Positions 31,273 through 42,550 are shown, numbered from the stretch's first letter. The stretch is 64,000 nucleotides of DNA from Gammaproteobacteria bacterium (GCA_018815765.1 JAHIWM010000102.1:45089-109088), one strand, 5' to 3'. Program-made: numbers and translations. The notes: generated by a model not told the origin, from the letters alone.

Positions 31273-31869
31273 GTGCGGATATTCGGGTTAGTCATTACAG
31301 TATTGCTGTTGTGCAGCTGCAGTTCTTTGCCACAAGGGCAAGATATTGCCGATCCTGTAAAGATCTCAAAAGCAGAACAACATCCTCCTTTGTTGTTTTA
31401 CACCGAGCGTCTGGCAGACCAGCTGTTTCATCAATTACAACCTCTGGAATTCGGTGCTATAGCTGTCACCACTTTTGCTGATGTGCAGCTGCTGGCTCCC
31501 GATACCAGTCGTAAGTCCAGCTATAACGCCTCCCTGCAGTTGCAGGAAAGTATGCAGACTGTGGCCACTCAGCTCGGTTATCAGGTCAGTGAAATACGCT
31601 TAAATGATGCTGTGCTGGTGCACCCAGGCTTTGAGAATTCCTTAGGCCGCGATTTAAGCCTGCTGGCGCAAAATCAACAGGCGCGTTATGTGATTACAGG
31701 GACCCTGACCGAAGGGGAAGTGCATATCACAGTGAATGCCAAATTAATTGACCTGAAAAGCCAGCAAGTACTTGCTGCGGCATCCAGTGTTATTCCAGTA
31801 GCTGTGTTATGGCCCAACGAGCAGTTGCAATTGCGCCATAATAAGTTGTATCGCAATTCGGAGTCTTAA
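31273..31869 (+). CDS. flgO: FlgO-family outer-membrane lipoprotein (paralog 1)
   Basis: 198 aa with a GTG start and lipobox-like LLCSC. Domain segment: IAVTTFADV...LQLQESMQTVATQLGYQVSE...YVITGTLTEGEVHITVNAKLIDLKSQQVLAAASSVIP. Its position next to the flg locus matches Vibrio flgO. Confidence 0.5.
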   Translation: MRIFGLVITVLLLCSCSSLPQGQDIADPVKISKAEQHPPLLFYTERLADQLFHQLQPLEFGAIAVTTFADVQLLAPDTSRKSSYNASLQLQESMQTVATQLGYQVSEIRLNDAVLVHPGFENSLGRDLSLLAQNQQARYVITGTLTEGEVHITVNAKLIDLKSQQVLAAASSVIPVAVLWPNEQLQLRHNKLYRNSES

Positions 31870-31872
31870 TTG

Positions 31873-32619
31873 ATGACTAGATATCGCCACCTTATTCTTT
31901 TATGCGGCATGACAACTCTGGCTTCTGTATCAGGTTGTACGCCTTTGATAGATACTGACTCCGAAGGTAAACCAGTGGCACCAGCGAATAAGGTGGAGCT
32001 GCAGCAAGGCCGTGTGACCTACAAAAAGGATGAGCCAGCAGTTCATCCGGATCAGCTGTATGTCAGTCAATATGACAGCGCCACCACTCAAAATGCCCGT
32101 ATGGCGGGGATGAATCCAACCAGCTATAAGCCTGAACCAGCCATTACAGTGAATCATTACGTCCAAAGTATGATGCATGACTTAGCTGCTAACCTTGAAG
32201 TGTTAAGCACAACCTTTAGTGTTGGTGTCACCAGCTTTGTTTATCTGGACGGTGATTATCAGCAAGGCGATTTGCTGGGTAATCAGTTATCTGAAGCTTT
32301 TATGCATGAGGCCACCCAGTTTGGTATGGCGGTCACAGATTTTAAAACCACAGATTATATCCGTGTAACACCCACAGGCGACTTTACTTTTAGCCGCGAT
32401 TTCCTTGAGCTGACCCAACAATACCCCATCAGTGTAGTGCTGGGGGGAACCTTAGTCCGCCATCAGGGCGGGGTAATGGTGAATGCGCGTATGGTGAACG
32501 TCAACGATAAAAAAGTGTTGGCGACAGCTCAGACCTTGATTCCACAAAACGTGGTACAGGCGCTAAAAGCGACACATAGCGCACCTTTGTTGCAGCTCAA
32601 AGCGGCTGGAACACCTTAA
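31873..32619 (+). CDS. FlgO-domain lipoprotein (paralog 2)
   Basis: Lipobox VSGC. The C-terminal domain VGVTSFVYLDGD...LGNQLSEAF...VVLGGTLVRHQGGVMVNARMVNVNDKKVLATAQTLIP is clearly paralogous to the genes on either side. Confidence 0.5.
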   Translation: MTRYRHLILLCGMTTLASVSGCTPLIDTDSEGKPVAPANKVELQQGRVTYKKDEPAVHPDQLYVSQYDSATTQNARMAGMNPTSYKPEPAITVNHYVQSMMHDLAANLEVLSTTFSVGVTSFVYLDGDYQQGDLLGNQLSEAFMHEATQFGMAVTDFKTTDYIRVTPTGDFTFSRDFLELTQQYPISVVLGGTLVRHQGGVMVNARMVNVNDKKVLATAQTLIPQNVVQALKATHSAPLLQLKAAGTP

Positions 32620-32641: not shown

Positions 32642-33961
32642 ATGAACTCACTGAATTCAACAATGACGTCAGCGTCAGCCAAAGTACTGTTAATAGTCGC
32701 AGCGCTATGGTTATCAGGTTGCGCTAGTTCAACAACCGAAAGTGCTGAAGCGCAAGTACAGGCAGAACAAACTGAACTTAGCGCTGAGGAACAACTGGCA
32801 CAACTGCAAACGCAAATGCAGGCGATGCAATCTGATTGGGAAAAACAAAAACCTGCGCTGGATCGTTTAGTCACCAATGAAGAAGATCTGCAGTTTTTAA
32901 TCAAAACGCTAAGCGATATGTCGCAAATTGATGACGCTCCTTCACGGTCTGCTTATCTGGGCAAAACGGAGATGACTGCGGAGCAACGTGAAGCGCTTTA
33001 TTCCATCACTCATGTGATCAACAACCAGCAGCAACTATTGGATATGGTGCAAAACCTGACCGATATCCTAAAAAATAATGCCGGAACAGTGAATACTGTA
33101 CAAAGTTCAACGACACAGAGTACACAAACTTTAGCGCCATCTGCAGCACCACAAGATGCACCTGTTGAAGTAAGCCGGGCTAATTATGAAGTCTCCGCAA
33201 ACTCCGAATTTAGCAGCAGTAGCAGCTCTTCAGCTGTAACGACGACTTCAACCACTTATTGTGAGTGTGAACCTTCCACGTCGCAGAATAGCTCTGTGGC
33301 GCAAGGCACAAGCAACAGGAACACAGAATGGTTTGGCTTAACTCAGCCCTATCAGGAAGCTGCTCCTGCTATGGGCATGGCACAAAACTCCCAGTTAGAC
33401 AGTAGCGCTGTAAACAATGGTCAACCTATTCCTGGCTTAGCGGTAAAACAATTTAGCCGCAGAACTTTACCTTCAGAGCTGGCGGCGGCCGGTGCGGATC
33501 TGCAGGCATATAATGCAGCGCCGATGTTCCAGCAAAGCCGTAAATCCTTAAGTGACTATGTTGCGCAGCTGGCATTTAAGTTGGCTGGTAACCAACAACT
33601 GCAAGGTGTGAAAGTTGGGGTAGCGAGTTTTGTATTTTTTGATTCTCAGCTTGAACAAACCAGTGCCGTAGGGAATCAGCTTGCAGAAGAGTTGAGCACA
33701 GTGCTGCCAGGTTATGGTGCTTCAGTGATTGAATACAAACTGACAAAAAATATTACTGTAGGTCCAACAGGTGATTTATCTTTATCCCGCAGTACCAGTA
33801 AGCTGCGCAACCCTCAGGGTATGGATTATATTTTAACTGGTACTATGGTTCCTACCCGCCGTGGTCTGCAAATCAATAGCAGGGTAGTGTCTACACAAAA
33901 TAATGTGGTGATAAGTTCTGCAACTACATTAATTCCTGCACTGGTATTACAACAGCTTTAA
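32642..33961 (+). CDS. FlgO-domain lipoprotein with coiled-coil and Ser/Thr-rich linker (paralog 3)
   Basis: 439 aa with lipobox LSGC. It has an N-terminal coiled coil, a low-complexity SSSSSSSAVTTTSTT stretch, and the C-terminal domain VGVASFVFFDSQ...VGNQLAEEL...YILTGTMVPTRRGLQINSRVVSTQNNVVISSATTLIP. Confidence 0.5.
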   Translation: MNSLNSTMTSASAKVLLIVAALWLSGCASSTTESAEAQVQAEQTELSAEEQLAQLQTQMQAMQSDWEKQKPALDRLVTNEEDLQFLIKTLSDMSQIDDAPSRSAYLGKTEMTAEQREALYSITHVINNQQQLLDMVQNLTDILKNNAGTVNTVQSSTTQSTQTLAPSAAPQDAPVEVSRANYEVSANSEFSSSSSSSAVTTTSTTYCECEPSTSQNSSVAQGTSNRNTEWFGLTQPYQEAAPAMGMAQNSQLDSSAVNNGQPIPGLAVKQFSRRTLPSELAAAGADLQAYNAAPMFQQSRKSLSDYVAQLAFKLAGNQQLQGVKVGVASFVFFDSQLEQTSAVGNQLAEELSTVLPGYGASVIEYKLTKNITVGPTGDLSLSRSTSKLRNPQGMDYILTGTMVPTRRGLQINSRVVSTQNNVVISSATTLIPALVLQQL

Positions 33962-33990
33962 ATCATTTTGTTTACTTCTGTACTTTCTGG

Positions 33991-34028
33991 TAAGGAATTA
34001 TAAATGATCTTTTATAATTCCTTATTTT
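33991..34028 (+). terminator. rho-independent terminator of the flgO-like operon
   Basis: TAAGGAATTATAAA-tgatct-TTTATAATTCCTTA forms a 14-bp perfect stem followed by TTTT. It begins 30 nt after the stop at 33961. Confidence 0.7.
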
Positions 34029-34292
34029 GGATTTTAACTATTTTGTACTATCCTTCTTTTGTTTCCTGATGCAAACGTTCCTGCTTTTTTACCTTCCTGC
34101 GCGTGAAAATATCCTGTTTGCGACCTGTTTTTAGAAGCTCTGGTGGTGTACAGTAGATTTTACTTAATTTCATAAATTTCAAAATCATCAAAAATATTTA
34201 CCGATTAAGTGAAAATAATTGCATTAAAAAATAGAAAAAACAAAAAAATTGAAATTTTTTGCATAAAAAAGTGAAAAATTAGAAAAATGTAA

Positions 34293-34319
34293 TAAAGTTT
34301 TAAGAGTGGCAGTCGATAC
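34293..34319 (+). promoter_or_regulatory. sigma28 (FliA)-type promoter of the DUF4402 fibre operon
   Basis: TAAAGTTT-N11-GTCGATAC against consensus TAAAGTTT-N11-GCCGATAA. The spacing is identical to the flagellin, flaG and flgM motifs in this window. It lies 80 nt upstream of ATG 34399. Confidence 0.6.
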
Positions 34320-34398
34320 ATTGATACGCTAAGGTTAAACTCAATTCGTTACCTGAGCGGGTTCATTGTAACTATTTGATCAATATAGGAAAGAGAAC

Positions 34399-35073
34399 AT
34401 GAATACTAATAATTTTTCTCGAAAAGCAGGTGTCGCGGTTGCTTTATCAGCAGCTCTGTTGTCTATGCAGGTATCTGCAGAAACAGCTTCAGCTGATATT
34501 TCTGTAACAGTAAATAACGCTATTACTTTCGTAAAGAACACCGATCTGAACTTTGGTGATGTTCGTGCAAGAGCGTCGTTACCTGCTGGCGAATGCAGCG
34601 GATTATACCTGCCTGCCAACCCAGCCTCACCACTACGTGTAGTAGATTTAGCGGGTGATACTGACCTGGTTAACACTGGTGGTACTGACGTTTGTACTGG
34701 AGAAGGTGATGCGGTCATGACATCTTTAGGAACAACTCCGGCTACCCGCGCTGGCTTTACTGTGAGTGGTGCTGCAACTTTTACCGACTTAACTATTACA
34801 ATTCCTGAAACAGTTACGCTGAACAATCCAAACCCAACTGCTCCTGACTTTGTTTTAACCTATATCCATGGTTACCGCACGTCGGCGCCAACGGGAGACG
34901 TTAGTTTTGCTATTGCTGCAACTGAAGGTGTGGCAACCGTAACTACTGATGGTACTGGTGGTTTCACCTTTAACTTAGGTGGCGCTTTAGTGACGCAGCC
35001 TGCCATTGCAACTACAGCTGTTTATGATGATACAACTTACACTGGTAGTATGATTGTCGAAGTCGCTTATTAA
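34399..35073 (+). CDS. secreted DUF4402-like fibre subunit (putative major subunit)
   Basis: 224 aa with signal peptide LLSMQVSA/ET. N-terminal alternating strand ADISVTVNNAITFVKNTDLNFGDV, middle AGFTVSGAATFTDLTITIPETVTL, and C-terminal YTGSMIVEVAY. The pattern matches my recollection of DUF4402 (SCPU/Csu-like). GGAAAGAG RBS. Confidence 0.6.
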   Translation: MNTNNFSRKAGVAVALSAALLSMQVSAETASADISVTVNNAITFVKNTDLNFGDVRARASLPAGECSGLYLPANPASPLRVVDLAGDTDLVNTGGTDVCTGEGDAVMTSLGTTPATRAGFTVSGAATFTDLTITIPETVTLNNPNPTAPDFVLTYIHGYRTSAPTGDVSFAIAATEGVATVTTDGTGGFTFNLGGALVTQPAIATTAVYDDTTYTGSMIVEVAY

Positions 35074-35093
35074 TTTATTTATATTGTAAGTGT

Positions 35094-35125
35094 AAAGGGA
35101 AGTTAAAATAACTTCCCTTTATTTT
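35094..35125 (+). terminator. intra-operon hairpin (attenuator-like) after the putative major subunit gene
   Basis: AAAGGGAAGTT-aaaat-AACTTCCCTTT forms an 11-bp perfect stem followed by ATTTT. It sits between the stop at 35073 and the next ATG at 35140. Confidence 0.55.
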
Positions 35126-35139
35126 AATCAGAGAATGCA

Positions 35140-35592
35140 ATGACTAAGATTGTACCATTTTTGTTATTGTGCTGGTCCTTTTGGACGGAAGCGGCGCTGG
35201 AAGAAGTGATTAAATTTCATTTTGGCGACATTGCTGTTACATCAACTGCTGTAGTGAGTACCGTCACAGTCCCCTTGTCCGGCCCATCCTGGTCGGATGG
35301 TGCTATCCATATTATCAAGCCAGGTCAGGCGGGTTTATACCGGTTAACTGAGTTTGTACCTTTCAGATACATCAATATTACACCTATGATGCCACAGGTA
35401 TCGGATCCGATAACCACCTCAGATGGCTTTGAGCTGGTTTCGGTGGATATGCCAAGTCAGTTAAGCACTGACAGTAATGGCACAGCTATGCTGCCAATAG
35501 GTGGGGTATTGCGCACCCGAACAACTACCGGTGAAGGTTATTTCAATACCACGTACCATATCTACTTAACTATTACTATTGAATACGAGTGA
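35140..35592 (+). CDS. secreted DUF4402-like minor subunit
   Basis: 150 aa with signal peptide LLCWSFWTEA/AL. IKFHFGDIAV parallels LNFGDV of the upstream gene. C-terminal YHIYLTITIEYE. Confidence 0.5.
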   Translation: MTKIVPFLLLCWSFWTEAALEEVIKFHFGDIAVTSTAVVSTVTVPLSGPSWSDGAIHIIKPGQAGLYRLTEFVPFRYINITPMMPQVSDPITTSDGFELVSVDMPSQLSTDSNGTAMLPIGGVLRTRTTTGEGYFNTTYHIYLTITIEYE

Positions 35593-35604
35593 GGTTTTAG
35601 ATTT

Positions 35605-36411
35605 ATGACTTCTGTATCCCGCATTTTTTTTGCTGCGTTTTTAGTGCTTTTATCTTTTCAAAGCTTCGCAAATTTACTGATTTCACCTACCAGAGTTGTT
35701 ATTGATACCAATGAAAAAACAATGCAGGTCGCATTGGTGAATGATTCAGATCGGCCGCAAACTTATCGATTAGAGTTTGAAAACAAAACCGTAAACGAGT
35801 ATGGCGCTTTTACAAAATTAGATGACAAATCAGTCGTAGGCTTTAATAGGGCTGATACTATGCTCAGAGTGTCTCCGCGTCAGGTGTCATTGCAACCCAG
35901 AGAAAAGCAAATCATTAAGTTGTCTTTAAGAAGGCCCCGAGGTTTGGCTGCGGAAGAGTTTCGCTCCTACCTAAAATTTGTCGCTATTCCACCTCCTGTG
36001 ATGTTAGCTGCGCCAGATCAGGCTCAGGCGACTCAACTTCGAATGTTAATGAGCTTTTCGATTCCTGTAGTAGTTAAAAACGGTGCGCCGAAATCTGAGG
36101 TGAAAATTACCAGTTTATCCAAAGATGCTATGGCAAAAGAGCAGCCTTTTATTGTGACTTTGGAGCGAGCTGGCAGCAGTTCTGTTTTTGGTAATTTGAA
36201 GTTATATACCCAACCTGATATTAACAATGGAAAGCCAGTCGCCTTACTAAATGAGGCTGCGTTTTATACAGATACAACACGCCGTACCTTTAAATTGATT
36301 TCTATGCCTGATACCAAGTTAAGCCCAAATGGCCTTTATAAATTGGTTATTGAAGGCGTGGACAAAGAAAAGGGCATAGTACTTGCTAGCAGGGAGATTA
36401 GTCTTAAATAA
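35605..36411 (+). CDS. PapD-like periplasmic fimbrial chaperone
   Basis: 268 aa with signal peptide LLSFQSFA/NL. LLISPTRVVIDTNEKTMQVALVNDSDRPQTYRLEF is the typical chaperone N-terminal strand pattern. Two Ig-like halves are apparent. Confidence 0.65.
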   Translation: MTSVSRIFFAAFLVLLSFQSFANLLISPTRVVIDTNEKTMQVALVNDSDRPQTYRLEFENKTVNEYGAFTKLDDKSVVGFNRADTMLRVSPRQVSLQPREKQIIKLSLRRPRGLAAEEFRSYLKFVAIPPPVMLAAPDQAQATQLRMLMSFSIPVVVKNGAPKSEVKITSLSKDAMAKEQPFIVTLERAGSSSVFGNLKLYTQPDINNGKPVALLNEAAFYTDTTRRTFKLISMPDTKLSPNGLYKLVIEGVDKEKGIVLASREISLK

Positions 36412-36431
36412 CATGATGTTTCCAGAGGGTT

Positions 36432-39400
36432 ATGCAAAACAAAAGGTCATTAAACCGCATCGCTATCAGTGTTGGGATAAGCCTTGGGTTATGGTGTGAT
36501 TTAGCTTTTTGGAATCAGGCATGGGCGGCGGCAAATGTCGATCAAGCTCGTACATCTGCCGCGCAAAACAAAAATATTTTTAGCCTAATTAAAAAACTGC
36601 GTCAAAACTATGGCGCAACCGAACAAATCCCTTTGTCTGCAGATGGGAATCCAGGCAACTCTGTAAATGCCTCTTCCTCTGTTGTATCACAATCTGCTGT
36701 TGTCGGAAGCCGCTTTGCCGAAGGTGAAGAAATCATTTTTGACGTTTCTTTGCAAGGCTATAAATTATCTGAACTTTACGCTATTAAATCAGCTACTGGT
36801 TACAGAGTGGGTTTTGCTAATCTTTTAGAAATTCTCGATTTACCTATTAATTTCTCTTTGGAGCAAAGTTCTGCCAATGGCTGGTTTTTGCGGGAAGACA
36901 ATTTGGTGAGTCTTGATTTTTCTACTCTAGATCAGCTAAAAGCAGTGATTGGTGGCAAGACAATTCTGCTCAGCGCTGACGACTACGAACTTGCGGCTGA
37001 TGATATCTACATTGAACTGGCCGAAGTCAGTCGATGGTTTAATTTAACATCACAAGTAAACGAAGAATACCTCAAGCTTGATTTGAGTACAAAAGACAAG
37101 CTTCCTGTGATAACCAGATTTGAGCGCCAGAACAGAAAACAAGTTGTAGCAGCCTATGGCTCTGAATCTGTTTTACCTGCTACCGGAATAAGCTATACAC
37201 CTTACTCGGCACCGCTGGTTGATATGCAGTTTGGGGTTTCGCATAGCAGTATTTCTAATAATGCTGCGTATGCTGTTAGTTCGAATCAGGATTTAGCGTA
37301 CTTTAATAGTGAGCTATTTGTCAGTGGCAATACTGAAGAGACTGTACAGTCAGTGCGTTTTAGCTTGAATAAAGAGTCTGCAGAAGGCGATTTACTACCA
37401 CTCATTCCGGTAACACGGCTTGATGTGGGCGATGTGTCTCCCTACAGCATTGGCAGCGCTTCAAGCGGGTTGAGCCGTGGCGTGAGCATCAGTAATACAC
37501 CACTGAACCAGTTGTATGACAATCGTAGAGTCACTATTGCAGGTCAGGTTCCTGTTGGATGGGATGTTGAGGTGTACCGAAACGGTGTATTGATCGATAG
37601 AGCTATTGCAGTTAGTGAAGGACGATACGAGTTTCTCGATATTGAGCTGTATTTTGGAAAAAATGAATTTGAGATTGTGCTCTATGGTCCTCAAGGTCAG
37701 GTTGAAACTCGCAATGAAAATTATGTGATTGATCGAAATGAAGTTTTAGCTGGGCAATCTTTTTATAATGTATCTGTTGTTGAGTTAAACCGCTCCTTAT
37801 TCGATTTTTTGTTTGATGACAGGCAACCGAACACAGGTTGGTTGTCCAGCTTTGTGTTTAATCAGGGGGTTACAGATTGGCTGGCTTTTAAAGCTGGATT
37901 CTCGAGTTTCGATTCCGATATCGAAGAATCTCAGCAGAGTGCTGTAGTCGGTGTGAACTTGAATTTGGCTCAACTTGCTTTATTGAATTCCTCTATTCGG
38001 GTCGAAAAAGATGAACGTACTACAGTAGACTCAAGCCTCAGAACTGAATTAGGTTCAACGGACTGGAGCTTTACTTATGGTAAAACTACAGAAGATGATC
38101 CGCTGTTAAAAAATCGCGACTCGGAACGTTATGGGGTTGGTTTTCGCGGTGGAATATTTGGATTTGTTAATTACGCTAATTCGTATTCTGTTGATACCTA
38201 TGGTGACGGTAATGAAACGGTCACTGCGAGTAATGCCACCAGTTTGAGTTCTTCTTTAGGGGCAATATCTAATTCGTTAATTTATCAAAAGGTAAAAGAC
38301 CCATACGCTTTTGATGAGTTAAGAGATGCTTTGGCTGAGGACGATATCCCTTTTGACGAGAATGGCAATCCTGATGAAAATCTGGATTTAAATAATCCGT
38401 TGATACGCTCTGAGCGGCAGTCAACACGAGGAGTGTTAAGTTATGCCAGACGCTTTGGGTCAGTGTTAACTCGTTTTAGTAGCGCATACCAACTCCAGCC
38501 AGAGCGTGAAACAATTTCATATTCAGCCAGTACTAATATTCCGATCTCCGAGGGTATTACCACAGATTTACGTTTTTCATATTTCCCTCAGTTTGGCAGA
38601 CGTCAATATGGTATGGGGTTGTCATGGCGATATAGCGATTTTATTTTTAGCGCCTTTGGTAATTACACCGATTCAAATAGTTATCAGATTGGTTTGTCAA
38701 CACGACTGAGTTTTGGTGCTGGATCCAAAGCTGAAAATTACGCGTTATCTGGCAAACAAGTGGGGCCTTACGGTGGGGCTGTAGTGAAAGTTTATGAAGA
38801 CAAAAATCTGAATCAGCAACATGACTATGGTGAGCCCCTGATCAAAAATGCCAGAGTGAAGGCGGTACAGGCTAACACTGAGGCTAGCACTGGTAGCGAA
38901 GGTTATGCTGTGTTGTCAGGCATAGTATCAAATACTAAAACCGATATTGTGGTGGACAGGTCAAGTCTGGAAGATGACCGTATGGTATCCACTATCCCGG
39001 GTTTCTCTATTAGTTCACGCAAAGGCTTTTGGGAACCTCTGGAATTGCCTGTCAGCCGTACTGCCGAGATCGAAGGTAAAGTGTACTTTTATGATGAAAA
39101 TGAAGTGCAGCAGCCAGCCACTTACGTAGGGGTACATTTGATCAACAAAGCCGGTGAGACGGTCAATACCACTCAGACGGAATACGATGGCTATTACTTA
39201 TTTACTGACGTATTGCCAGGCTTTTACAGAGTAGAGATAGATAAACGATCGTCACGCCGTAAATCATTAAGAGATACCGATCCGCTGGTTTTTGCCGTGC
39301 GGGGTGGGGTAGATATTCTGGATGGCACCACTATTGTAATGCAGCAGGCGCAACTGGAGCCCGGTTATGCCGTCACTATGGGCCGGTTTAACTCAGCTGT

Positions 39401-39602
39401 GCTGTTAAAAACTTACTGGAGTCTGGTATCTAAAACTGGCATGAACGTTGCAAAATTGAAACCGTTCTATATTCAAAATGACGGTAAACATCACTTATAC
39501 GCCGGCTTCTATAAAGATAAAACAACGGCAGACGAGTTATGTAACAGGCTGGCTAAGCGCGGATTCTCGTGCTCTGTCAAAGAGTTCGAATTTAAGCTCT
39601 AA
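36432..39602 (+). CDS. usher-like outer-membrane assembly protein with C-terminal CarboxypepD_reg-like and SPOR domains
   Basis: 1056 aa with signal peptide AWA/AA. Usher-like N-terminus EIIFDVSLQGYKLSELYAIKSATGYRVGFANLLEILDLPI. Plug-like RRVTIAGQVPVGWDVEVYRNGVLIDRAIAVSEGRYEFLDIELYFGKNEFEIVLYGPQGQ. It then has a long beta-rich region, a GKVYFYDEN...DGYYLFTDVLPGFYRVEI segment, and the SPOR-like tail YAVTMGRFNSAVLLKTYW...HHLYAGFYKDKTTADELCNRLAKRGFSCSV. Confidence 0.5.
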   Translation: MQNKRSLNRIAISVGISLGLWCDLAFWNQAWAAANVDQARTSAAQNKNIFSLIKKLRQNYGATEQIPLSADGNPGNSVNASSSVVSQSAVVGSRFAEGEEIIFDVSLQGYKLSELYAIKSATGYRVGFANLLEILDLPINFSLEQSSANGWFLREDNLVSLDFSTLDQLKAVIGGKTILLSADDYELAADDIYIELAEVSRWFNLTSQVNEEYLKLDLSTKDKLPVITRFERQNRKQVVAAYGSESVLPATGISYTPYSAPLVDMQFGVSHSSISNNAAYAVSSNQDLAYFNSELFVSGNTEETVQSVRFSLNKESAEGDLLPLIPVTRLDVGDVSPYSIGSASSGLSRGVSISNTPLNQLYDNRRVTIAGQVPVGWDVEVYRNGVLIDRAIAVSEGRYEFLDIELYFGKNEFEIVLYGPQGQVETRNENYVIDRNEVLAGQSFYNVSVVELNRSLFDFLFDDRQPNTGWLSSFVFNQGVTDWLAFKAGFSSFDSDIEESQQSAVVGVNLNLAQLALLNSSIRVEKDERTTVDSSLRTELGSTDWSFTYGKTTEDDPLLKNRDSERYGVGFRGGIFGFVNYANSYSVDTYGDGNETVTASNATSLSSSLGAISNSLIYQKVKDPYAFDELRDALAEDDIPFDENGNPDENLDLNNPLIRSERQSTRGVLSYARRFGSVLTRFSSAYQLQPERETISYSASTNIPISEGITTDLRFSYFPQFGRRQYGMGLSWRYSDFIFSAFGNYTDSNSYQIGLSTRLSFGAGSKAENYALSGKQVGPYGGAVVKVYEDKNLNQQHDYGEPLIKNARVKAVQANTEASTGSEGYAVLSGIVSNTKTDIVVDRSSLEDDRMVSTIPGFSISSRKGFWEPLELPVSRTAEIEGKVYFYDENEVQQPATYVGVHLINKAGETVNTTQTEYDGYYLFTDVLPGFYRVEIDKRSSRRKSLRDTDPLVFAVRGGVDILDGTTIVMQQAQLEPGYAVTMGRFNSAVLLKTYWSLVSKTGMNVAKLKPFYIQNDGKHHLYAGFYKDKTTADELCNRLAKRGFSCSVKEFEFKL

Positions 39603-39606
39603 CTGG

Positions 39607-40443
39607 ATGGTATCAAGAATGAATTTTACTCTAAAGTACGGCTTGGGCTTTTGTCTTGCCTCCTCCTTGTTCGGTTGTTCATCAGCTCCGGCTGTAACAG
39701 AGGACAATCAATCAGTCGCAGTAAATGCGGAGATGGAAGAGTGGCGCAAACTAAAACCCGGTGTTCAGCGTTTAATTGCTATGGAATCTGATTTAAAACA
39801 GCTGATTATCCAATTAGACGAATTTGCCAAAGCTACAGATCCTGATTACCAGTCAGATATTGCGCCACAGCATAAAAATACGCAGGTCGATGTTTTGGAC
39901 AAAAATGTTTTCAAAGAAACAGTGGTAACGCCAACACCAGCTGAGCCTGAGCCTGTAACGCCTGTGCTGGCGCAAACTGTGGTCAGTGCAGAAAAATCTG
40001 AAGCTAAAGTTCAGCAGATTGTTGCTGCAACTCAGGCTGAGCCATCAGTTGCCAGAGTTGATCACACTCCGGCAGTTGCTCTGACTGCGCAGCCAACACC
40101 AGAAGTTAAGCCTGAGGTCGAAGCAGTTGTGGAAGAGGTTTCTCCGGTTACAGAAACAGTAAAAGTGCAGCAACGTTACGCTTTACAGCTTGCATCCGTA
40201 GTCAATCCGAATCAATTGGTCAGTACCTGGACCCAGATACAGCGCAGACACAGTTCAATACTCTCAGGAATGGAGCCGCTGTATGAGAAATTTCAGAAAG
40301 GAAAAACCACCTTTTATCGCCTGAAAGCTATGGGCACATTGACTGTAGCCGATGCCCGTAGCGCATGCAGCAGTATTGTAGGGCAGGGCGGCCAGTGTTT
40401 TATCGGTAGCAACAGTGGTGTGAAGAGCGTCACTGAGTTATAA
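39607..40443 (+). CDS. SPOR-domain lipoprotein
   Basis: Lipobox LFGC, with start at ATG 39607 or 39619. It has an N-terminal helical motif, a Pro/Glu/Val-rich linker, and C-terminal SPOR domain YALQLASVVNPNQLVSTW...TTFYRLKAMGTLTVADARSACSSIVGQGGQCFI. The ORF-track start at 39478 overlaps the previous gene. Confidence 0.6.
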   Translation: MVSRMNFTLKYGLGFCLASSLFGCSSAPAVTEDNQSVAVNAEMEEWRKLKPGVQRLIAMESDLKQLIIQLDEFAKATDPDYQSDIAPQHKNTQVDVLDKNVFKETVVTPTPAEPEPVTPVLAQTVVSAEKSEAKVQQIVAATQAEPSVARVDHTPAVALTAQPTPEVKPEVEAVVEEVSPVTETVKVQQRYALQLASVVNPNQLVSTWTQIQRRHSSILSGMEPLYEKFQKGKTTFYRLKAMGTLTVADARSACSSIVGQGGQCFIGSNSGVKSVTEL

Positions 40444-40477: not shown

Positions 40478-40506
40478 AAAAAGAGCCTTTATGGCTCTTT
40501 TTTTTG
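40478..40506 (+). terminator. rho-independent terminator of the fibre operon
   Basis: AAAAGAGCC-tttat-GGCTCTTTT followed by a T-run, about 35 nt after the stop at 40443. Confidence 0.7.
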
Positions 40507-40782: not shown

Positions 40783-41940
40783 TTAACGTTGTTCTTTATC
40801 ATTAATCAAAGTTGCGGCATCGCCCACTTGCACATTAGCTAATAAATCCATATTGATACTTTCAGCCCAGGCATTTTGATGGTTCAGCTCTGTGATCTTC
40901 ACTTTCAGCTCACTGACGGTAAGTTGATCCTGCAGTTGACCAAAACTGTCTTTGTGTTGACGACGAAACAGTATCGTCAGCTCATCACCCATTTTTAAGC
41001 CTTGTCTGCTGCCAAGATTCAGCAACACTTTCTGCTGGTTCACCAGTGTAATATCCGCCAGTATAGTTTCACAGCGCAGCGCTTCCTCTACATCCTGGGC
41101 TGCGGCGTTGAGCACCCGCTCAATAGATTTGCCGTAGTCGGTTTGCCAGAAACGCTGGGTTTTCGGGCTGATCACTGTCGTGCTGCGAAAGCCCCATACC
41201 GCAGAGGTCTGATAGGTTTGGCTGAGCAGTACTTTTTGCTCCTGAATATCAGACAACTCCAGTTGCAGCTGATAAAAGCGTTCGCGTTCCTGATCAGACC
41301 AAAAGGTCCAGTTGGTGCCAACGCGCTCTCCTAAAGAAACGTCACCTAAACTGGCTTTGAGTAAATAGCGGCCGCCATAGTTGCGCTGTAAAGCACCACG
41401 CTCGGCATAGCTCAGCTCTTTTTGCCGGATAGATTGGGGCAGTAACTTGAGCAGGCTGGAACCTGAGGATTCCTCCAGCTTCTGAATAAACAGGCTGGTG
41501 CTGGCTTGATCCAGTTCGTACAGTTGCCCTGTAATGGCCTGTTCCCTGTTCTCGATGAAAAAAGGACTTATCAACAGTTCTTTTTTTAGCTGCAGATTAG
41601 CGCACTGGTTTTGATCCGGGTAAATATCCGCACGGATAGTGACATTGATGTAACCATTTTCTTCAGTCTCAGAGACGATTTGTACATTTTGTACTTCACC
41701 CTGAGATTGTAAAAACATGGATTCCTGAGTCAACAAACCGTCCGTCACCTGTTGTACTGTGCGAATGGAGGCTCCTGAGTAAAGCAGAGCCTTACGCACT
41801 GCATCTTCAGTGGCTGCGGTTCTGGCTGCAGTAGTGTCGCCGGTTCGCAACACGGCCTGACCTGTGGCTTCGTACCAATCAGCCGAGGCTGTGCCCGGAA
41901 GCAAGGCCAGCAGTGACAAACTTAGCGCAGATAGACGCAT
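40783..41940 (-). CDS. flgT: flagellar H-ring assembly protein FlgT
   Basis: 385 aa with signal peptide LLALLPGTASA/DW. The N-terminal WYEATGQAVLRTGDTTAARTAATEDAVRKALLYSGASI matches the LPP20/FlgT N-domain pattern. Position beside flgP matches Vibrio. Confidence 0.7.
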   Translation of the reverse strand: MRLSALSLSLLALLPGTASADWYEATGQAVLRTGDTTAARTAATEDAVRKALLYSGASIRTVQQVTDGLLTQESMFLQSQGEVQNVQIVSETEENGYINVTIRADIYPDQNQCANLQLKKELLISPFFIENREQAITGQLYELDQASTSLFIQKLEESSGSSLLKLLPQSIRQKELSYAERGALQRNYGGRYLLKASLGDVSLGERVGTNWTFWSDQERERFYQLQLELSDIQEQKVLLSQTYQTSAVWGFRSTTVISPKTQRFWQTDYGKSIERVLNAAAQDVEEALRCETILADITLVNQQKVLLNLGSRQGLKMGDELTILFRRQHKDSFGQLQDQLTVSELKVKITELNHQNAWAESINMDLLANVQVGDAATLINDKEQR

Positions 41941-41990: not shown

Positions 41991-42030
41991 GAATGTGTAT
42001 TTTGCGCTATAAAAAATCAATTTATAGAAA

Positions 42031-42046
42031 AGGCACGGATTGTGCA
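42031..42046 (+). promoter_or_regulatory. sigma54 promoter of flgP
   Basis: AGGCACG-GATT-GTGCA with exact spacing, 49 nt upstream of ATG 42095. Confidence 0.6.
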
Positions 42047-42094
42047 TTATTTACTGCAATGAACCTAAGCAGAAATGGGCAGAGGCACGCCATT

Positions 42095-42550
42095 ATGAAC
42101 AAACTGACAATCAGCGCATTGTTACTGACCTTATTACCGGGCTGTAGTCTGGTGTCTGACCGCCATGTTGAATGGGAAACTGTTGAACCAGAACGTTTTC
42201 CAGTGTTAAAAGCCGTGGGTTATGCGCCATTAAGTCAGCAACCAGGAGCCAGTGAGCAGGAACGAATGCTAATGGCGATGAAAGCCTCTAAGCTTGAAGC
42301 TTACAGAGAACTGGCTGAACAGGTGTATGGCCAAAGAATTGACGCTCAAGCCAATATGCAGCAAATGATGGTAGGTAACGATCAATTGAGTTCTTCGGTT
42401 AGCGGTATTATTCGGGGTGCCCGTGTGGTGAAAACTTACCCTGTAGGTGATGTGTATGCCACAGAACTCGAGCTGGACTTTAAGCAAGTGTACGATTTAT
42501 ACCTGAATAGTCAGCCAGCCCGCCGTATTAAAAATGTGAAGTACTACTGA
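42095..42550 (+). CDS. flgP: flagellar outer-membrane lipoprotein FlgP (LPP20 family)
   Basis: 151 aa from ATG 42095 with lipobox LLPGC. LPP20-like MLMAMKASKLEAYRELAEQVYG segment. The ORF-track start at 41993 precedes the promoter motif. Confidence 0.7.
   Translation: MNKLTISALLLTLLPGCSLVSDRHVEWETVEPERFPVLKAVGYAPLSQQPGASEQERMLMAMKASKLEAYRELAEQVYGQRIDAQANMQQMMVGNDQLSSSVSGIIRGARVVKTYPVGDVYATELELDFKQVYDLYLNSQPARRIKNVKYY

Follow-up and report, generated by a model that had tools for sequence, protein, structure and literature searches.

Five co-directional open reading frames (ORFs), located on the plus strand at 34399-40443 inside a polar-flagellum gene block, most probably encode machinery for building a surface fibre, of a divergent chaperone-usher type. 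The operon lies in a window of 64,000 nucleotides from a gammaproteobacterial genome (Gammaproteobacteria bacterium, GCA_018815765.1 JAHIWM010000102.1:45089-109088), and coordinates refer to this window unless a related locus is named. We assign a probability of roughly 0.7 to this reading, whereby DUF4402 pilins form a shaft (g1) with a tip cap (g2) and are exported by a SPOR-tethered usher. In order, the genes code for a secreted subunit of 224 residues from a long class (g1, 34399-35073), a secreted subunit of 150 residues from a short class (g2, 35140-35592), a PapD-like periplasmic chaperone of 268 residues (g3, 35605-36411), an usher-like outer-membrane protein of 1056 residues (g4, 36432-39602) and a SPOR-domain lipoprotein (g5, 39607-40443). 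The first is a candidate major polymerising pilin and the second a candidate tip or initiator subunit. Gaps between the genes measure 4-66 nucleotides, and the products of g1 to g4 begin with Sec-type signal peptides ending in VSA, TEA, SFA and AWA, respectively. An ORF check confirmed what the initial annotation had stated about these genes, namely that there are five of them in one direction, with the lengths and the N- and C-terminal peptides quoted there. Taken together, this is a chaperone-usher-like system that fails the sequence definitions of both ushers and pilins, and that adds peptidoglycan-binding and FlgO/FlgT-type partners.

It is at the level of the predicted fold, and only there, that g4 finds support as an usher; by sequence it falls outside the Usher family. 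We built an AlphaFold2 (AF2) model of g4 from 48 homologues, which reached a predicted local distance difference test score (pLDDT) of 81.7. The model comprises an N-domain (residues ~100-220), a barrel (~262-761) with about 22-24 long predicted strands, an inserted beta domain (~329-433) that interrupts the barrel strands, two C-terminal beta-sandwiches (781-972), the second of which matches SdrD_B/CarboxypepD_reg, and finally a SPOR domain (975-1055). In prediction, this corresponds to the architecture of an usher, with a periplasmic N-domain, a barrel with a putative internal plug domain and two C-terminal domains. The most conserved motifs of the family, GWDVELYRNG and YGPQG, fall in the inserted domain. 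When the model was compared with the PDB by Foldseek, the top 18 matches were all to FimD or PapC (E values from 4e-27 to 4e-14, at most 970 aligned columns); matches over the full length of the protein run from 4e-27 to 1e-16. The initial annotation had described an usher-like outer-membrane protein and proposed looking for a barrel with a plug. The domain order predicted for g4 does resemble that of FimD/PapC, whereas Pfam sequence models of ushers lend no support, and the C-terminal SPOR domain had been overlooked. This domain is recognised by Pfam (PF05036, 31.6 bits, cut-off 21), as is SdrD_B (36.3 bits). A C-terminal SPOR domain recurs in 14 of the 48 relatives of g4, and one relative carries LysM. 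Some members of the usher-like family are 1,200-1,560 residues long and have additional N-terminal sequence.

The chaperone is recognisable by sequence. With 26.0 bits, g3 exceeds the Pfam cut-off of 23 for PapD_N, and all but one of 18 g3 relatives from other loci match the same domain (17/18, best E 4e-9), which bears out the PapD-like chaperone of the initial annotation. Within the family a PTR motif is near-invariant (P28 invariant, R30 in at least 90%), and a second conserved motif reads GEYRSHL-x-F-x-A-x-P, its residues E118-L123 being mostly conserved at 90% or more. A search of PDB sequences with the profile of the g3 family returned CsuC, PapD and CupB2 below threshold only (E ~1; 0.86 for CsuC).

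The subunits probably belong to the DUF4402 family, as had been proposed. Although g2 reaches only 23.4 bits against DUF4402 (PF14352; gathering threshold 25.2) and g1 has no Pfam match of its own, the family is matched by 13 of 20 aligned subunit relatives (best E 1e-10), g1 aligns with DUF4402 proteins, and its neighbouring-locus orthologues are annotated as such. The further suggestion of a kinship with the SCPU/Csu pilins found no support: neither SCPU (PF05229) nor the Fimbrial Pfam models matched g1, g2 or the 20 relatives at E <= 1, and the best, weak PDB matches of the g1 model are not to Csu. In the alignment, both subunit classes share a core made up of L-x-F-G, G-G-x-L-x-T and a C-terminal Y-x-G-x3-V-x-V-x-Y. 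They differ directly after the signal peptide, where the long class has an extra ~13-15 residues that are missing from the short class. In g1 this extension corresponds to residues ~28-40, ETASADISVTVNN, with hydrophobic residues alternating. Our survey of related loci, whose counts rest on 80 retained loci, found one short gene together with at least one long gene in most gammaproteobacterial loci. With regard to the incomplete Ig fold, devoid of the G strand, that the initial annotation had sought in the subunits, an AF2 model of g1 (pLDDT 75.9) leaves residues 28-42 unstructured and folds residues 43-224 into a beta-sandwich. Judged from sequence, the g1 extension is a candidate donor strand, and g2, which is devoid of it, a candidate tip cap. 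The PDB matches of the g1 model in Foldseek are all weak; they include an archaeal donor-strand bundling pilin (E 8e-3) as well as CfaB and CooA (E 0.03-0.09). The donor-strand fibrils of TLP-1 from pond water (PMC11494351), considered as a possible match, were absent among the 50 fold matches listed. A search of PDB sequences with the subunit-family profile gave nothing significant.

Between g1 and g2, a 14-bp hairpin with a U-run (35092-35122, plus strand; RNA fold z -3.7) interrupts the gene order. Comparable hairpins follow the 3' end of a long-subunit gene at no fewer than 16 of the 41 subunit-gene junctions scanned in related loci. A stem-loop after the gene for the major subunit is an arrangement known from the pap and fim operons. 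The g1-g2 hairpin is a candidate attenuator that would yield an excess of major-subunit transcript.

The last gene of the operon most likely starts at M39607 or M39619, just past the g4 stop codon, and then encodes 274-278 residues with the lipobox LFGC; a longer open frame (39478-40443) overlaps g4. The SPOR lipoprotein of the initial annotation is supported by this lipobox and by counterparts in other loci, which pass the SPOR cut-off of 21 with 26-39 bits, whereas g5 itself scores 20.2 bits and is most likely shorter than the 321 residues of the longer frame. SPOR lipoproteins are encoded in most gammaproteobacterial loci, but are largely absent from the alphaproteobacterial ones, with none in the Sphingomonadales loci.

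How might such a machine build a fibre? Going by their sequences, all five products would be exported by Sec. In the periplasm, the chaperone g3 would capture the DUF4402 subunits. Because g2 lacks the N-terminal extension, we place it at the fibre tip, such that it would enter the usher first. Polymerisation of g1 might then proceed by donor-strand exchange, whereby its N-terminal extension of ~13 residues would be inserted into the preceding subunit. The growing fibre would exit through the g4 barrel, for which a domain order like that of FimD/PapC is predicted. Given the SPOR domain of g4 and the SPOR lipoprotein g5, the machine is probably tethered to peptidoglycan. SPOR domains bind denuded glycan strands, and a septal or polar placement of the machine is therefore conceivable.

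Several observations weigh against this scenario. Pfam Usher (PF00577), PapC_N and PapC_C do not match g4 at E <= 0.1, and among its 48 relatives a single one matches Pfam Usher (E 0.0017). PDB sequence and profile searches with g3, g4 and the family profiles retrieved no chaperone or usher at a significant E value; for the g4 C-domain they gave SdrD-B-type matches only. The predicted template modelling score (pTM) of the g4 model is only 0.60. PapD_C (PF02753) is not matched at E <= 1 by g3 or its 18 relatives, and among the PDB matches of the g1 model in Foldseek none has an E value under 1e-3. That strands are donated from subunit to subunit, that g2 sits at the tip and that the machine is targeted to the pole are all features that we infer, and we know of no fibre observed for any member of the usher-like family.

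Alternatively, g4 might be an outer-membrane channel for other cargo (polysaccharide, for instance, or one particular secreted protein), with the small proteins acting as periplasmic or cell-surface accessories. Such a role would accord with the missing usher sequence signature, with weaker fold matches to LptD, PelBC and TonB-dependent barrels, and with the sugar-biosynthesis or Wzy_C genes that adjoin the operon in some genomes. The usher fold matches are, however, better by ~20 orders of magnitude and cover the N-domain, the barrel and the C-domains, unrelated barrels (LptD, TonB-dependent receptors) appearing from E ~1e-6. Moreover, a PapD_N chaperone is always encoded alongside, and the N-terminal dimorphism of the subunits is what donor-strand polymers require. 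We thus consider a channel for other cargo very improbable, and favour the export of a fibre assembled by chaperone and usher.

The operon is one instance of a large family. A profile search of 1.84 billion representatives returned 4,035 clusters (at 50% identity) of usher-like proteins at E<=1e-30 and 10,091 at E<=1e-10, and at least 595 loci are present among the genomes of GTDB species. The hosts include Alteromonadales-type genera, Cellvibrionaceae, Vibrio, Marinomonas, Psychromonas, Sphingomonadales, Rhodospirillales and Bdellovibrio-like metagenome-assembled genomes; the closest usher among GTDB representatives is 37% identical to g4. A core of subunit(s), chaperone and usher is found in nearly every surveyed locus long enough to show it. 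An NCBIfam scan of g1-g5 gave no informative match. In three lineages the survey also brought up sugar-related genes beside the operon. Sugar-modification genes stand directly 3' of it in Rheinheimera soli (L016 13750-21840) and Thalassomonas (L002 14010-23078). Both sets contain WbqC, methyltransferases, GH32/43-like proteins and a DegT aminotransferase, to which R. soli adds a formyltransferase; Thalassomonas has an HMW1C-like protein of 625 residues, and R. soli a protein of 630 residues without Pfam match at the same position. Glaciecola (L003 15291-18832) encodes two Wzy_C-domain proteins after a subunit gene. These adjoining genes hint at glycosylation of the subunits in some lineages.

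Comparison with close relatives reveals a sharply bounded zone of divergence. The g1 start codon marks precisely the point at which sliding nucleotide identity to the closest relatives falls from ~0.9 to 0.58-0.76; it recovers around 38900, close to residue 820 of g4, which corresponds to the predicted transition from the barrel to the C-terminal domains. The divergence cassette (34399-~38900, plus strand) comprises g1, g2, g3 and approximately the first 800 residues of g4; the flanks, which include the g4 C-terminal domains and g5, show ~0.9 nucleotide identity. Protein identities to the three closest metagenomic relatives follow this pattern, with 87-99% for the flanks and 90-92% for g5 as compared to 61-75% for g1-g4. 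Relative to R. soli, ptsP, lgt, thyA, FlgO1 and FlgT are 89-98% identical, which makes a Rheinheimera species the probable source of the window, whereas g1-g5 are only 28-37% identical; identity declines from FlgO1 (91%) over FlgO2 (77%) to FlgO3 (53%). Close relatives retain 92% identity in the region upstream of g1, despite the divergence of the genes that follow it. The locus is accordingly composed of a variable module (subunits, chaperone, usher N-domain and barrel) and a constant one (usher C-domains, SPOR domain and g5). Such a composition accords with replacement of alleles at a locus that encodes an exposed, co-adapted assembly system. That subunits, chaperone and usher N-domain/barrel form a recombining, fast-diverging cassette is what diversifying selection on an exposed structure would lead one to expect.

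Cassette-like divergence with sharp borders would also be displayed by an unrelated island that came to lie beside flagellar genes by chance or by hitch-hiking, in which case the neighbourhood would be without biological meaning. The lower GC content of the operon (0.41-0.44, as opposed to 0.46-0.49 in the flanks) and the occurrence of the core operon at unrelated positions in many genomes point the same way. The gene neighbourhood argues otherwise. Rheinheimera and Pseudoalteromonas both have the operon in the same slot (thyA - flgO genes - operon - flgT), FlgO-type neighbours survive rearrangements in seven genera, and FlgT- or FlgO-like genes adjoin it even at a distance from any flagellar cluster. 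We consequently hold a chance insertion to be distinctly unlikely, and take the place of the fibre operon in the H-ring gene block to reflect an old, recurrent linkage with FlgO-/FlgT-like outer-membrane lipoproteins.

What does this linkage consist of? In the window, Pfam-supported neighbours on both sides confirm the placement between flgO-like genes and flgT/flgP that had been noted initially. Upstream, three tandem plus-strand genes encode FlgO-domain lipoproteins and possible accessory proteins (FlgO1, 31273-31869; FlgO2, 31870-32619; FlgO3, 32642-33961), with Pfam FlgO scores of 103-147 bits; rppH-ptsP-lgt-thyA lie further upstream. Downstream follow flgT (40783-41940, minus strand), which encodes all three FlgT domains, a FlgP-like LPP20 gene (41993-42550, plus strand), flgN, flgM, flgA and cheV. 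The FlgP-like ORF is probably annotated too long, as an LLPGC lipoprotein signal starts from an internal methionine near 42095; its relative in L086 has been called as a product of 151 residues. A minus-strand ORF of 148 residues (34380-34826) that runs antisense over g1 is backed by no evidence and probably does not represent a real gene. Of the three FlgO proteins, FlgO2 matches V. cholerae FlgO best (PDB 9yds, E 3e-28), and in a crude neighbour-joining tree the FlgO domains fall into three paralogue clades, with FlgO2 of the window grouping with V. cholerae FlgO. By these comparisons FlgO2 is likely the orthologue of V. cholerae FlgO. It is also the only one of the three closely similar to that protein, the extra paralogues being candidates for additional H-ring rings.

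Across the survey, FlgO-domain genes lie within 10 kb of the operon in 23 of the 80 loci. They represent seven genera (Rheinheimera, Pseudoalteromonas, Alteromonas, Bowmanella, Lacimicrobium, Fluctibacter and Paraglaciecola) and four different orientations or positions. Only in Rheinheimera and Pseudoalteromonas, which have the slot between the flgO genes and flgT in common, is flgT or flgP also nearby, mostly along with flgN, flgM and flgA. Alteromonas, Bowmanella and Lacimicrobium have FlgO genes adjoining the operon without flgT or flgP within 10 kb. Five Cellvibrionaceae loci (L005-L009) encode a FlgT-related protein right after the SPOR gene; in Cellvibrio (L006 13956-15365) it has 469 residues and a FlgT_M domain scoring 68 bits, and the neighbours there are non-flagellar (response regulator-GGDEF, LigB and DEAD helicase). 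No FlgO, FlgT or FlgP neighbours were found in Thalassomonas, Glaciecola, Vibrio, Psychromonas, Marinomonas or any Sphingomonadales locus of the survey. A search of the accessible literature yielded no paper on DUF4402 (PF14352, IPR025514), on SPOR-bearing ushers or on this type of operon. The initial remark that operons of this type are without a known flagellar connection needs amending for genomes, where linkage to FlgO-/FlgT-like genes recurs, albeit with many lineages devoid of flagellar neighbours. What recurs is a pairing with FlgO-/FlgT-like lipoproteins rather than with the flagellum as such. Since FlgT- and FlgO-like genes are found beside the operon even in places where a flagellar cluster is missing, these lipoproteins appear to travel with the operon.

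Signals for transcription tell the operon apart from its flagellar neighbours. It is flanked by terminators on both sides: the flgO3 terminator hairpin (33986-34031, plus strand; RNA fold z -4.8) and a bidirectional intrinsic terminator between g5 and flgT (40478-40502). The first of these stands in the AT-rich region upstream of g1 (33962-34398, plus strand; 437 bp, GC 0.37), which presumably also holds the promoter or leader of the operon. An Rfam scan of this region returned no family and no riboswitch, the only matches being spurious microRNA and small nucleolar RNA hits on the terminator hairpin. Sigma-54-like sites precede flgO1 (31210), flgT (41990, minus strand), flgB (46091) and another flagellar gene (49641), whereas 33900-34420 and the corresponding stretches of four relatives contain neither a sigma-54 nor a sigma-28 consensus. 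Within g4, near its 3' end and ~170 nucleotides before g5, the motif TGGCATGAACGTTGCA (39437-39452, plus strand) deviates from the sigma-54 consensus by one mismatch. It is identical in L084 (15021) and L086 (15034); sigma-54-like versions with two mismatches occur at the equivalent place in R. soli (L016, 12796), whose usher is 37% identical, and close by in L013 (12829). Overall, a sigma-54-like site precedes the SPOR gene in 7 of 39 loci, as against ~2.3 expected. Glaciecola-type loci have similar sigma-54-like motifs in the intergenic region between usher and SPOR genes. The site at 39437 could be an internal promoter, or its conservation could stem from coding constraint, and we treat it as a lead only.

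Might the operon be a functional accessory of the polar flagellum? In Vibrio, flgOP form one FlrA-dependent operon adjoining flgT at the end of the flagellar locus (PMC3948606). FlgO, FlgP and FlgT build a lipid-anchored H-ring, which in V. cholerae has two peripheral densities that are unassigned (bioRxiv 10.64898/2025.12.02.691832). The operon could, then, build or decorate an H-ring or disk together with the FlgO paralogues, FlgT and FlgP, or provide a fibre at the flagellar base. Its position between flgO1-3 and flgT/flgP, the FlgO-domain linkage in seven genera and four gene arrangements, the FlgT_M paralogue within the Cellvibrionaceae operon, the sigma-54-like site ahead of g5 and the unassigned densities of the V. 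cholerae H-ring all lend themselves to such a view. So does a resemblance between FlgO3 residues 65-98 (32834-32935) and g5 residues 45-78 (39739-39840; BLASTP E 1e-5), which share a 34-residue N-terminal helix motif, W-x-K-x-KP...RL...E-x-DL..LI..L. This motif suggests, as far as sequence can tell, a common binding partner of FlgO3 and g5.

Against a flagellar accessory speaks first of all the distribution. The core operon is without FlgO/FlgT/FlgP neighbours in Thalassomonas, Glaciecola, Vibrio, Psychromonas, Marinomonas and all Sphingomonadales loci, the FlgO genes of Alteromonas, Bowmanella and Lacimicrobium come without flgT or flgP within 10 kb, and the neighbours of the Cellvibrio locus are non-flagellar. 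Furthermore, the region upstream of g1 is free of the sigma-54 or sigma-28 consensus, unlike flgO1, flgT and flgB, terminators isolate the operon on both sides, and it is hypervariable next to flagellar genes that are 90-99% conserved. The flagellar link is a genomic one, and a flagellar role is speculation that seems unlikely to us. A related idea is that FlgO-/FlgT-like lipoproteins and SPOR proteins form an envelope-spanning ring around the usher, with an anchoring module shared or exchanged with the Vibrio-type H-ring, and with the fibre of Rheinheimera and Pseudoalteromonas assembled at the flagellated pole, either within the flagellar outer-membrane complex or docked to it. We rate this arrangement as unlikely; if true, it could explain the unassigned peripheral densities of the H-ring.

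If the operon indeed encodes a fibre-assembling machine, then it represents a large unannotated chaperone-usher branch, with at least 4,035 clusters and at least 595 GTDB loci, whose members range from marine and freshwater Gammaproteobacteria to Alphaproteobacteria and Bdellovibrio-like bacteria. Current annotation would miss this branch because the Pfam Usher model does not pick up its ushers and its pilins go under the name DUF4402. To our knowledge, g4 would be the first usher known to be fused to a peptidoglycan-binding domain, and through the SPOR fusion, pilus assembly might be controlled in space (at the septum or pole), which can be tested. Its repeated association with FlgO-/FlgT-like proteins provides a handle on the origin of the Vibrio-type H-ring proteins. 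Finally, cassette-like hypervariability suggests that phages or grazers of aquatic bacteria are likely to target the fibre.

How does the system compare with known ones? It resembles the Vibrio H-ring loci in that FlgO-domain lipoproteins and FlgT/FlgP flank the operon. In Vibrio, however, flgO-flgP is one operon and nothing separates it from flgT, whereas here the operon and flgT separate flgO from flgP. There are also three FlgO paralogues, and none of g1-g5 is similar to any known flagellar protein. Small operons in environmental bacteria and short pilins are reminiscent of the archaic (sigma) systems, Csu of Acinetobacter and CupE of Pseudomonas. Unlike in those, there is no SCPU match, CsuC is reached with the chaperone profile only at E 0.86, and the Csu/CupE ushers belong to Pfam Usher, to which g4 does not. 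Among the alternate (class 5, alpha) systems CFA/I and CS1, CfaB (probability 0.93, target TM (template modelling) score ~0.37) and CooA rank with the best fold matches of the g1 model, and their chaperones are likewise very divergent from PapD; yet these matches are not significant (E 0.03-0.09), sequence similarity is missing, and CFA/I and CS1 come without SPOR/FlgO-type partners. With the classical Fim and Pap pili (FimC/FimD, PapD/PapC), the operon has in common subunits, a PapD_N chaperone and a large outer-membrane protein, a stem-loop after the major-subunit gene and one subunit without the N-terminal extension, as well as a predicted usher order of N-domain, barrel with inserted domain and two C-terminal beta-sandwiches. 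It departs from them in that Pfam Usher, PapD_C and Fimbrial models find no match and the subunits are of the DUF4402 type, and in what it adds to the classical scheme: a C-terminal SPOR domain on the usher (LysM in one relative), a dedicated SPOR lipoprotein and frequent FlgO-/FlgT-like neighbours.

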